The translations under genes and the position numbers were made by a program. Of a stretch of 64,000 bases of DNA, positions 27,296 to 62,345 are shown piece after piece. The stretch comes from Octopus sinensis (lineage: Eukaryota): positions 124,001-188,000 of the forward strand of contig NW_021833473.1 of assembly GCF_006345805.1 (NCBI RefSeq), written 5' to 3'. The notes under the pieces were generated by a model. The model saw nothing but the letters and a program-made list of their open reading frames with translations, was not told the origin of the DNA and did no database searches. Each line of letters starts with the position of its first letter. The stretch's first letter is position 1.

Positions 27296-28113
27296 TGCTT
27301 TAGTGGGTGATTAATTTGGACAGAAGGAATGGCACAAATGGTGCAGGGCAATCTGTAAACACTCATAGCTTTACTCCCTAATTGGTTGTGGTGGAAGCAC
27401 TCCGTCGGTTACGACGACGAGGGTTCCGGTTGATCCGATCAACGGAACAACCAGCTCGTGAAATTAACGTGTAAGTGGCTGAGCACTCCACAGACACGTG
27501 TACCCTTAACGTAGTTCTCGGGGATATTCAGCGTGACACAGAGAGTGAAATACAGGTACAACAGAAACAGGAAGTAAGAGTGAGAGAAAGTTGTGGTGAA
27601 AGAGTACAGCAGGGATCACCACCATCCCTGCCGGAGCCTCGTGGAGCTTTAGGTGTTTTCGCTCAATAAACACTCACAACGCCCGGTCTGGGAATCGAAA
27701 TCGCGATCCTACGACCGCGAGTCCGCTGCCCTAACCACTGGACCATTGCGCCTCCACAATTGGTTGTAGCGATTAAGCTGAGGACGTAGATTTCACTGAT
27801 CAGAATGTATATCATTATTCAATATTTAAAAGCCGGGTTATATTGCTAGTTATTCAATATTTAAAACTATATCATTTATTATGCAATGTAACTAACATAT
27901 GGTGATACAAACTCTCAACATATTTAAATGTTTTCTAGGACTATCTTATAGGATTAGAATTAAACATGAAAAAAAGAAGAAAAAGACAAACAAGAGAAAA
28001 AACAAGAACAATTTACTTATTATAAATCTACTAAAATTTCTTAAGCTTTTTTCTAGCTATCGGCAAAATTATTATATACAATATAAGTAATGTAAATTGA
28101 GTAATGCTTACAA

Positions 28114-28260
28114 TTAAGCATGTATCCTAACTCTTACTAGTACGTATGTAACAATGTATGAAACTATACCAAGAAAAATTGCTATTTTGATGTACACTCT
28201 TGCTTTTGAGTTCGACTTCAGCGCTGCGGCTGTATTTCCACCTGCGGCATATTCATTCGC
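28114..28260 (-). CDS. CD225/dispanin gene B, last coding exon
   Basis: Acceptor ttttatattctag. Translates ANEYAAGGNTAAALKSNSKARVYIKIAIFLGIVSYIVTYVLVRVRIHA*. Confidence 0.88.
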   Translation of the reverse strand, partial: ANEYAAGGNTAAALKSNSKARVYIKIAIFLGIVSYIVTYVLVRVRIHA

Positions 28261-30176
28261 CTAGAATATAAAATGAAATTTTATATGTAAAGCATGCAAA
28301 TAAAACTCAACAACACCGAACACATTGCTTTCAAATTTTGACACAAAGATAGCAATTTCAGAGGAGCGGTTAACTCGATTATATCGACCCAAGTACTCAA
28401 CTGATATTTATTTGATCGATCTCGAAAAGGATGTTAGGTAAAGTCGATATGGGCAGATTTGAACTTCGAACAAAATGCCAAAATGCCACTAAACATTTTG
28501 CTCGGCTAACGGTTCCGCCAGTTCGCCGCCTTAACAACAGCAAATGTATTGTCACGTATTTACAACTCATATAAGTTTATTGGTGTAAAGAGATTTGTCA
28601 AGATGATTCTTTGGAAATGACCTGCCAGTGTCCATGTCAAACTGAGATCAAGAACGCAATTTTACCTTACTCTAAATCTCATTACAATACAAATCAACCA
28701 CCGTGCTCTAATCCAGTGTTACATGTAAGTAGGTTGTAAAGATTGAGAAAGAAGCTAACAAATTATCATATTTAATAAAAAGATGGTTTAAAAAATCTTT
28801 AAGAAGGTCGAAACATCATTGTGAAGAAAGAATTATATGGATGAAAAAATTATCAACAAAGAAACAGACGGTGGTGATGTGACAACAAACTTCAGTAATA
28901 GCTTTGAAAGTCGCGAGTGGCAGTGAACTGGTATTATTTGTCAGGGTTACGACCATTAGTGTTATAAAAGTAGATAGTTAATCCAGACTGCGAGGTGTCA
29001 TGCTTTTTCTTAGCCAATTGCTACTTAGGATTAGTAGCAACCTTATTTATATACACATTGTAAGTTAGAAGATATATAAAAGAAGTATGGAACAAGATTG
29101 TTGTGGTTGATATACTTGGAGTAGTTATTGATAGAGATTTTGGAATAAGGAAGTATTACACGTGAGTCTTTATATAAAAACCCTTCTCATTTGATCTTGT
29201 TTAAGGTGATTTGCTTTCTTTATCCCCCATAATCTTTATAAATAAATGCTTCACGTATCTAAGATGGCGTCTCATTAAGTCGACGATACGGCTAACGTCA
29301 CAACTTAATCTGTTATAAGTTTCGCGTGTTGAATATATTTTTTATTTGTCTATTACATATTCTTACACGTATTTCAACGTTGAATTTGTACGGTTTTGGT
29401 GTATCTTTGTTTCTAACATGTAATGTCATGGATGAGCAGTGTTCGTATATCTTTGCATGGAGCGAACTGAACATGATTCCATGTGTCTTCTATGCATAAA
29501 GTTTATATGCATATATTTATTATTCATGAATCAATATGTATGGTTTTTCAATATAATATTGAACATAGTATGGAAAATAAGAAATACAAAAACTGAACAA
29601 GTTTTCTAGTAACATCAATATATAAATATAAGTATTTCCCAACATATGAACATATTAGTAGGTTTAAATACATGTATTGTGCCCTTTCAATAATTAATAT
29701 TTATCTTTCACCAGGTGGAGTACTTTTTTTGTTGAATTTTAGTACATTATACACATATATGTGTATGTGCGTGTGTATGTGTGTGTGTGTACGTGTTATA
29801 TATATACATATACATTATAATACGGAAACAAGGAAAATGCCACATGTATTTGATTGGTTTCCATACTTACAGTTGAAAATGTCTCAATGACTGAAACTGG
29901 TACTAAAATCTTTTTTATAAAATCAATTTAGCATTTTCTATCTTAGCCTTTTTCCCCATATATATATATATATATATGTATATATATATATATATATATA
30001 TATATAATATATTATATATATATATATATTATATATATATATATATATAATATATATATATACATACATATATATATATATATATATATTATATATATAT
30101 ATTATATATATATATTATATATATTATATATATATATATATATATATATATATATATATATATATATATATATATA

Positions 30177-31508
30177 GCCAGCGAGGCATTTACAATAAAA
30201 TAAACTGACATTAGCGAAGAAGATGTTCTACTAGCCATAGATGAAGTGGACACAAACTCAGCTGCTGGTCCTGATGGTTTCCCAGCCATCCTCCTCAAAT
30301 CGTGCAAACATTCCCTGGCAAAACCCCTCAAGATTCTCTGCCAGAGCTCTCTTACAAATGGCAAACTGCCAAGCAAGCTGAAGGAGGGAATAATATACCC
30401 AATACATAAAGGGGGAAGTAGAGCAGATGCCAAAAACTATCGGCCTATCTCTCTGACTTCACACATCAGCAAATTCATGGAACGTATAGTCAGAGGGAAA
30501 CTAATCGCATTCCTTGAAAAAAATAACTTGCTAAGTGATACCCAACATGGTTTTCGACCAGGTAGGAGCTGCCTGACCCAGCTCTTACAACATTATGACC
30601 GGGTGTTGAGGCAGTTACTCAACAAATCAAATGTAGATGTAATATACCTTGATTTTGCAAAAGCTTTTGACAAGGTGGATCATGGTATGATATGGCACAA
30701 ACTGCGTGACCTCGGCATAGCAGGAAAACTTGGAGTGTGGTTGCATGACTTCCTGAAAGATAGGAGTCAGGCAGTAGTGGTTAATGGAGCCACCTCTATG
30801 AACACACAAATAGTGAGCGGTGTTCCACAGGGCACTGTCTTGGGACCACTGCTTTTTATAGTGGCCCCCTCAGATATGCCCTCAAATGCCCGGATAGCCA
30901 CACTGGCAAGCTATGCAGATGATACGAAAGTCTCACAGAAAATACAGAACCCCAGCGATGTTGCTTCACCTGCAGCAGGTGTTGGACTCAATTTACAGAC
31001 GGGCTGAAGATAATAATATGCAGTTTAATGCTTAAAAATTCCAGGCTCTGCACTACCAGCATCCACAACTGAATATTAAACCTATAGGGTACACCGGTCC
31101 ACAGGGAATTTCAATCCCAGAGCCTAAGTCAGGGAGGGACCTGGGTATCGACATGAGTGATGATACATCTATCCAAGTGCACATTACCAGGATGGCGACA
31201 AAGTGCAGACGACTGGCTGGATGGATCCTAAGAACATTCAGAACCAGAGATAAGGAAACCATTATGGTCCTCTGGCGGACATTCGTCCTCAGCCGCCTAG
31301 ATTACTGCTCACAGCTATGGTCACCACCAGTGTGAGATTAACAGCGGACCTTGAAGCAATCCAGAGAAGATTCACAAAGAAGATCGTCTCTTTGCAACAG
31401 CTCAGCTACTGGGAAAGGTTGAAACGGCTAAGACTCTACTCCCTTGAGAGAAGACGGGAGAGGTATGCAGTAATATATATCTGGAAGATCCTAGAAGAAA
31501 TTGTGTAA
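30177..31508 (+). mobile_element. CR1/L2-group LINE RT fragment
   Basis: SAAGPDGFP, NYRPISLTSHISKFMERIV, QHGFRPGRSCLTQLL, YLDFAKAFDKVDH, SGVPQGTVLGPLLF and YADDTK, with a frameshift near 30960. Confidence 0.92.
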
Positions 31509-61710: not shown

Positions 61711-61815
61711 TAAGATGCTGTACATAATAGCAGCGATGCCTGTTGGACAAAAGCAGCATATGGTGACACAAAGTGCCCAACCTATCCTATTCGGGATTTC
61801 ATCTTCCGGAGTTAT
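61711..61815 (-). CDS. CD225/dispanin gene C, CC-motif exon
   Basis: Acceptor cctattttcag, donor gtaagt, 105 nt, phase 0/0. Translates ITPEDEIPNRIGWALCVTICCFCPTGIAAIMYSIL. Confidence 0.9.
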
Positions 61816-61879
61816 CTGAAAATAGGATAAACAAAAGAAATAACATTATCATCAAAAGTTGGTGACGATGATGACAACG

Positions 61880-62345
61880 AAGACATTATCGAAAATGATA
61901 ATGCAAAGATCCTATGGGATTTTATGATTCAGTGCGACCATGAGATAGAGAATGGGAAGCCAGGCATATTCTAAATTTTGAAAGAAAGCAAACTATGCTG
62001 GATCATAGATATAGCATGCCCAGCTGACAAAAAGGTATGCGATAAGGAAGAAAGAAAAGTCGATAGATATGACAGGTTAGCTTGTGAGGTTAAAAAGTTG
62101 TGGTCGATGAAAATGTGGTAGTGGTACCAATAATTGTCGTAGCCCTGGGAAAATTGAGTAAAAATGTCGAGAAGTACATGGAACAAATAGGGGCTGCAAT
62201 AAAGGTGGAGCACTTACGGAAAACAGCACTGCATGGAACCGCTCGAATACTCCGGAAGGTGCTCGAAAAATAAAGTGTTGCCTTAGCTCACTGGTAGTGA
62301 ACAGCTGACACCGCACAACATCTCCAGCATTAGAAGCTGTGCAAA
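61880..62345 (+). mobile_element. R4/Dong-like LINE 3' end in a gene C intron
   Basis: Similar to the reverse complement of 21650-22035 (NDNAKILWDFMIQCDHEIE...) and followed by (TAA)n. Absent from the paralogous gene B intron. Confidence 0.85.

Follow-up and report, generated by a model that had tools for sequence, protein, structure and literature searches.

The window analysed here is a stretch of 64,000 nucleotides of the Octopus sinensis genome (G000:C9944:124001-188000) that carries the dispanin gene B, the last two coding exons of its relative C, and exons of a third paralogue, A. The coding exons of B and C are about five times more different from each other than their introns, and positive selection very probably acts throughout the family to which both genes belong. 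B matches the NCBI gene LOC115230236 and C the protein XP_029656310.1 (P0159), both named Octopus sinensis. Several copies of the cluster, C among them, are called 'proline-rich transmembrane protein 1-like' by NCBI, and the individual genes are already annotated there under scattered names.

Each gene likely comprises four coding exons, namely a 10-nt start exon, a proline-rich exon, a CC exon and a last exon (Table 1). The frames, GT/AG splice sites, CC and P-x-G that the earlier note had described as intact in B and C are so, and spliced contigs exist for both genes: the last exon of B is spliced to its CC exon in an X12 contig, and the CC exon of C is spliced to both neighbouring exons in X5 and to one side in X12. 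These contigs stem from sequencing runs that are presumed to be RNA, with no run recorded as such. An amino-acid-changing variant occurs at window position 61776, within the CC exon of C, in run X16. C lacks the usual 3' untranslated region (UTR) of the family, as window position 54388 and below hold unrelated sequence past a 28-nt island shared with B.

The tandem arrangement of dispanin genes suspected from the window was borne out by an iterated profile search, which was run over 840 kb of C2 and over contig C9944 in full (200 kb). It yielded 21 loci, 18 of them at C2:21.05-21.64 Mb and three on C9944. The CC and last exons are open in 19 of the 21; c128 is frameshifted, c138 is without its last exon, and A has an altered splice acceptor. 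In O. vulgaris, the 215.6-Mb record that carries the B and C proteins also carries other members of the cluster, so that C9944 is likely part of the C2 cluster.

Table 1. Coordinates of gene parts and shared tracts; positions refer to the window unless a contig is named.
Feature	Position	Strand	Remarks
B last coding exon (predicted cytosolic helix, second transmembrane segment (TM2), short tail, stop)	28114..28260	-	A spliced contig leaves the exon at exactly 28260 and goes on into the CC exon
B intron 2, 3' part	28261..28770	-	37/476 differences from the homologous C 54572-55047
B intron 2, 5' part	34534..35092	-	33/506 differences from the homologous C 61203-61710, none of them in the first 54 nt
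B CC exon (predicted re-entrant helix, CC and P-x-G)	35093..35203	-	Pfam CD225 on P0002
Repeat-like block in intron 1, common to B and C	36743..38554	-	114/1765 differences, patchy
B proline-rich exon	38924..39096	-	Diverged from C in the 5' part; almost identical at the 3' end
B candidate start exon	46049..46058	-	Placed by homology; the region shares only 75% identity with that of C
28-nt island at/after the B stop	28089..28116	-	Identical to C 54389-54416; B-C homology ends there
C last coding exon	54428..54571	-	X5 and X12 contigs link it to the CC exon
C CC exon	61711..61815	-	Joined to neighbouring exons in contigs
C proline-rich exon, start exon	G000:C9944:189164-189261, 197704-197713		Beyond the window
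C-c279 promoter/start-exon tract	G000:C9944:197605-197966 vs G000:C2:21290104-21290467		
A candidate start exon	1551..1560	+	
A CC exon	4025..4135	+	Profile search
A last exon	17168..17392	+	In this assembly the acceptor is AT, not AG

Divergence and probable positive selection in the coding exons

The contrast between exons and introns of B and C, from which the earlier note had set out, was reproduced on recounting. In the last exon (28260-28141 vs 54571-54452) exactly 46 of 120 nt differ, whereas the adjacent intron (28261-28380 vs 54572-54691) differs at exactly 11 of 120, and the first 87 nt of the intron past the CC exon hold 2 differences. At the protein level, 17 of 47 residues are identical in the last exon (36%) and 15 of 35 in the CC exon. 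Over nine aligned blocks, the non-coding divergence of the pair amounts to 288 of 4510 nt (6.4%). Codon positions 1 and 2 differ at 67 of 162 sites, against 13.3 expected from the introns, which is far beyond chance, and the differences per codon position are 37/30/31. The proline-rich exon shows the same jump in divergence at its 5' end, absent at its 3' end. A comparable pattern was described for snake venom phospholipase A2 (PLA2) genes by Nakashima (1993/1995), where, according to passages of PMC7285919, introns and UTRs are more conserved than coding exons, KA is close to or above KS, and differences are spread over all three codon positions. B and C share the excess of exon over intron divergence and the even codon-position spread; unlike these secreted toxins acting on prey, the octopus proteins would be intramembrane and mostly cytosol-facing.

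Site models were fitted to 18 paralogues and 83 codons with our own GY94/F3x4 code, not codeml. Copies c128 (frameshift) and c138 (no last exon) were left out of all codon work, and c49 out of nucleotide trees and site models. M2a exceeded M1a by twice the log-likelihood difference (2dlnL) of 94.9, with 33% of sites at an omega (dN/dS) of 3.2, and by 54.1 on the gap-free core only. With a term for double-nucleotide mutations, 2dlnL was 35.7-65.7, and the preference for M2a persists on another tree. M8 versus M8a gave 82.9, each exon on its own tree 16.9-49.6, the set with B and C removed 76.6 and a 7-gene subset 20.4. In the youngest pair, c251/c641, a dS of 0.020 stands beside a dN of 0.147 (omega 7.5, p=0.008) and an intron divergence of 0.044. 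Across seven close pairs, codon positions 1 and 2 evolve at 2.5 times the intron rate, while four-fold sites carry 20 changes, with 16.9 expected from the introns and 36.3 if the pairwise maximum-likelihood (ML) dS were real (p=0.002). Agreement of dS with intron divergence was found at four-fold sites over the seven pairs, and not for B-C by ML. For distant pairs, intron identities were taken from local alignments, which bias them downwards. The diversifying selection proposed at the outset is supported for the family and across species, but is weaker than proposed for the B-C pair alone, whose omega is not significantly above 1.

For a comparison that does not depend on introns, four O. bimaculoides relatives were obtained from a representative search and look-up. 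P0016 is the only relative of B and C found among them, at a dN of approximately 0.32-0.44 to either; an earlier screen of 78 O. bimaculoides candidates had given none close to B or C, but was weak, as it also missed P0016. This protein combines B-like and C-like features, and its top matches are the C and B exons and the c434 CC exon; nothing else in G000 matches it more closely. P0016, B and C form a trichotomy (branches of 0.15 for P0016 vs 1.17 and 0.79) that approximately unbiased (AU) tests cannot order. With dS fixed at 0.123, the autosomal value between O. sinensis and O. bimaculoides in an excerpt of PMC10925132, omega reaches 2.6 (C) and 3.6 (B), and at a dS of 0.2 it is 1.6 and 2.2, respectively, which is still significant. 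The slow control pair c150-P0005 has a dN of 0.04 and an omega of 0.35 at dS 0.123. As far as these sequences indicate, the outgroup comparison, independent of introns, agrees with positive selection.

O. vulgaris has near-identical B and C proteins (74/76 and 73/76 over the core), and the O. vulgaris protein pairs show no omega significantly above 1. The comparison with close relatives in runs X7 and X11 was uninformative. X7 has 2 exon-3 changes, both amino-acid changing and the same as in P0001, and its 1081-nt intron piece shows 1 substitution and 1 indel; in X11 exon 3 is unchanged while several changes fall in the intron, and paralogous contigs may be collapsed.

Protein family, selected surfaces and possible drivers

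Proteins P0001-P0003 score 55-61 bits against the Pfam family PF04505 (CD225; cut-off 27.1), and the CC exon of C alone reaches 32.9 bits. Hydropathy gives two hydrophobic segments, which are accompanied by hairpin cysteines and a polar loop, with CC present in both B and C. The label 'IFITM-like' of the earlier note found no support at the subfamily level: the sole solved-structure match at E<0.001 is PRRT1/SynDIG4 (E 1.1e-11). SVKSRD, according to part of PMC8994042 the Golgi-egress motif of IFITM, is absent in 19 of 19 aligned copies. GxxxG, an oligomerisation motif that also occurs as (small)xxx(small) (passages of PMC7665892), is not IFITM-specific; it is intact in 10 of the 19 copies, reads GxxxA in B and has been lost in C. 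The motif CCFxPTGI is exact in C and altered in B (CCNLPFGI), and the N-terminus is proline-rich. The structure match, the CCFxPTGI motif and the N-terminus support an assignment of the B and C proteins as PRRT1-like (subfamily D) rather than IFITM.

With PRRT1/SynDIG4 the family shares the CC-F-x-P-T-G-I-x-A-I hairpin, the G-D loop, a long TM2 and the proline-rich N-terminus. To our knowledge, PRRT1 is a single conserved neural gene in vertebrates, whereas the octopus has 21 fast-evolving copies instead. The CD225 domain, the hairpin cysteines and tandem duplication are shared with IFITM1/2/3 (subfamily A), and vertebrate IFITM arrays are under positive selection; the octopus copies differ in having no SVKSRD and, in B and C, no intact GxxxG, and are not orthologous by best structure match. 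For Aplysia, excerpts of PMC9334734 and PMC9282427 report 10-14 CD225 proteins as putative antivirals or possible AMPA-receptor regulators; that set is multi-copy like the octopus one, and the excerpts give no cluster, selection test or function. In the literature on dispanins of octopus, cephalopods, molluscs and invertebrates, of which few subscription papers were covered, no account of the cluster or its selection was found.

The conserved core consists of CC/FC, P-x-G and Gly and Ala positions, and the conserved sites make up the hairpin and one helix face. The selected sites occupy the other face of early TM2, the N-terminal (juxtamembrane) linker, and distal TM2 with the tail. On the first half of TM2 they recur with a 100-degree periodicity (p=0.001), and distal TM2 holds 10 of the 24 strongly selected sites. 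The topology may be that of a type II membrane protein whose proline-rich N-terminus lies in the cytosol and which further has a re-entrant, palmitoylated hairpin, a cytosolic helix and a single transmembrane helix, TM2. By analogy with PRRT1, nearly the whole protein would face the cytosol or the bilayer, and a classical ectodomain recognition receptor is therefore unlikely. Since the selected sites sit on the TM2 face, the linker and distal TM2 and tail, each paralogue would show a different partner-facing surface, and the paralogues might act as palmitoylated fusion or trafficking regulators or as membrane-protein binders with diversified partner surfaces.

In the explanation that we propose, B and C are spliced sister copies in a 21-locus PRRT1-like dispanin array, positive selection likely pulled their coding exons apart after duplication, and gene conversion likely helped to keep some non-coding parts alike. 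As a whole, we consider this the best explanation of B, C and the array and place measured confidence in it. A cluster of 21 copies in which a third of the sites have an omega of approximately 3 points to strong recurrent selection. As its driver, pathogen conflict at the membrane entry or fusion step is our first choice, tentatively held. More specifically, a PRRT1-type dispanin could have been amplified to approximately 20 copies, independently of the IFITMs, as an octopus-specific restriction-factor array in an arms race with pathogens at membrane entry, in which every copy shows its own TM2 and cytosolic-helix surface and promoters are swapped by conversion; this is rather doubtful, and if true, it would be an invertebrate IFITM analogue arisen by convergence.

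The same selection could also have another driver, and we regard this as unlikely, yet deserving of serious weight: PRRT1-like auxiliary subunits or trafficking adaptors might co-diversify with octopus-expanded glutamate or chemosensory receptors or SNAREs, or gamete fusion might be involved. The closest solved relative speaks for such co-adaptation, as TM2 of PRRT1/SynDIG4 is a partner-binding helix wedged between GluA1 M4 and CNIH2 (part of 10.64898/2026.06.24.734257), and CD225 proteins bind SNAREs (passages of PMC11730294) and regulate fusion. The near absence of an ectodomain and the share of strongly selected sites in distal TM2 fit as well. However, the observed omega in a third of sites across many independent duplicates is, as a matter of general knowledge, more typical of antagonistic conflict than of co-adaptation between host proteins. 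Cephalopod immune effector genes are poorly known, and the cluster is a candidate for cell-intrinsic defence or for receptor partners. It is also a clear invertebrate non-toxin case of exons evolving faster than introns, in which an outgroup calibrated at the species level allows selection to be told apart from conversion.

Selection weighed against conversion, mutation and decay

Several observations weigh against the proposed explanation. For B-C, the NG86 method gives a dN of 0.60 and a dS of 0.52 (dN/dS 1.14), and the ML omega of 1.46 is not significantly above 1 (p=0.29). The exon dS of the pair is 0.33-0.40 versus an intron divergence of 0.07-0.09 (site classes, free foreground omegas); it rejects 0.087 (p 0.0006-0.005) and 0.123 (p 0.004-0.027), while 0.2 is not rejected. 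Silent changes in same-prefix codons number 6 of 30 in B-C (1.9 expected) and 9 of 31 in c518-c542 (2.9 expected), and two-fold sites overall show 19 against 8.3 expected; the silent excess is limited to these two pairs, both of them same-strand neighbours. The B-C non-coding divergence is patchy and overdispersed 3.3-fold, and the similarity of the promoters is only 75-77%, also when the tract shared by C and c279 is excluded. In the P0016 comparison, a dS of 0.3 lowers omega to 1.04 (C) and 1.43 (B), and of the 8 B/C tests by simple relative-rate counts, all lean to acceleration but only 2 reach significance. On the structural side, the AlphaFold model is weak (predicted local distance difference test score, pLDDT, 61.5; helices 47-57, 59-77, 81-117), and a fold search with it gave no match at E<=0.001.

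The earlier note would have abandoned selection if exon dS were as high as dN and the likeness of the introns due to recent conversion. Part of this was seen, in that the B-C dS is near dN and above the intron level and conversion occurs in the cluster. Because the B-C dN/dS is 1.1-1.5, exon dS exceeds intron divergence and conversion was observed, the exon/intron contrast may overstate the acceleration 2-3 fold, and part of it may be intron homogenisation.

Conversion in the cluster is visible in a 365-nt tract around the start exon of C that is 95.9% identical to c279, two loci otherwise 72-78% alike; the tract is a promoter swap by conversion, in either direction. Between the exons of B or C and another paralogue, no conversion tract survived correction (best pair p=0.027 uncorrected), and long identical runs are weakly in excess within the exons (global p=0.047). 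Judging by the C-c279 tract, the dissimilar promoters, the patchy non-coding divergence and the silent excess, conversion operates and the pair may predate the age of its introns. On balance, a single long copying step, either duplication or conversion of the whole body, probably gave B and C their shared gene body at approximately 7-10% neutral divergence, and the start-exon region of C would later have been exchanged with c279. An older B-C pair with converted introns seems less plausible. Selection is needed under either history. Dating of the intron-1 repeat failed, with no close third copy within the 1.04 Mb searched; the block itself resembles a decayed retroelement.

That selection could be dispensed with altogether is improbable. 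In such a scenario, B and C would be an old pair (neutral distance approximately 0.25-0.35) with introns homogenised by exon-sparing conversion and exons under relaxed constraint, in line with the pairwise dN close to dS, the exon dS above the introns, the diverged promoters, the patchy introns, the C-c279 tract and the identical runs. However, divergence does not rise towards the exons, since within 50 nt of the exon edges B and C differ at 12 of 229 positions, against 32 of 201 for B-c279, and the 28-nt identical island is flanked by the most diverged end of an exon on one side and by non-homologous DNA on the other. Intron and exon trees accept one joint topology (AU 0.11, 0.21), and each rejects the best tree of the other. 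Furthermore, the site models stay significant for individual exons and when B and C are removed, and the P0016 comparison is free of introns. The history of an old pair with conversion may hold, yet the selection signal stays.

Exon-targeted hypermutation, or edited mRNA/cDNA copied back, would raise the exon mutation rate, which is consistent with boundaries sharp at the splice sites, the silent excess in two pairs and a double-nucleotide term above zero. The substitution spectrum makes it highly improbable, since such models predict an A>G or general excess that did not appear: A>G changes on the sense strand (0.072) show no bias over T>C (0.066), C>T is equal at 0.077 in exons and introns, and the excess consists mostly of transversions. 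Besides, four-fold sites follow the introns, the youngest pair has 0 of 62 silent changes, exon 1 drops to the intron level at its 3' end, and c150 is slow. Finally, pseudogene decay or an assembly artefact, suggested by the contig lying outside C2 in this assembly and by the damaged copies (the A acceptor, c128, c138), can practically be dismissed, as both genes are spliced, have no stops, keep the conserved core and recur in O. vulgaris, and introns far more alike than exons are impossible through decay.

Further features of the window and the array

The proline-rich exon of paralogue A was not found. The acceptor of its last exon (window 17166-17168) reads AT though the frame is open, owing to a mutation or an assembly error, and a 150-bp tandem repeat (6.9 copies, 97%, window 16041-17076) ends approximately 90 nt before this exon. 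Remnants of the family promoter, in which no start exon was found, lie between B and C (window 43272-43858, 51199-51647 and 52323-52529) and before A (1-568). On C2, a frameshifted CC exon (21128623-21128729), an orphan CC exon (21138565-21138672) and a partial tandem CC-exon copy (21346071-21346142) are birth-and-death debris.

Intron-less CD225 domains occur elsewhere in the genome at C29:11872677, C29:11874190, C2:42585225, C3898:419 and C9:3004315, the two on C29 being 1.5 kb apart with equal scores. Inverted repeats at window 11630-13865 (571 nt, 93%) and 6803-7400 (107 nt, 100%) are probably the ends of DNA transposons. The approximately 40-55 nt after the donor of the CC exon are conserved family-wide (for example window 35039-35092) and near-identical in B, C and c279, and this stretch is a possible splicing element.

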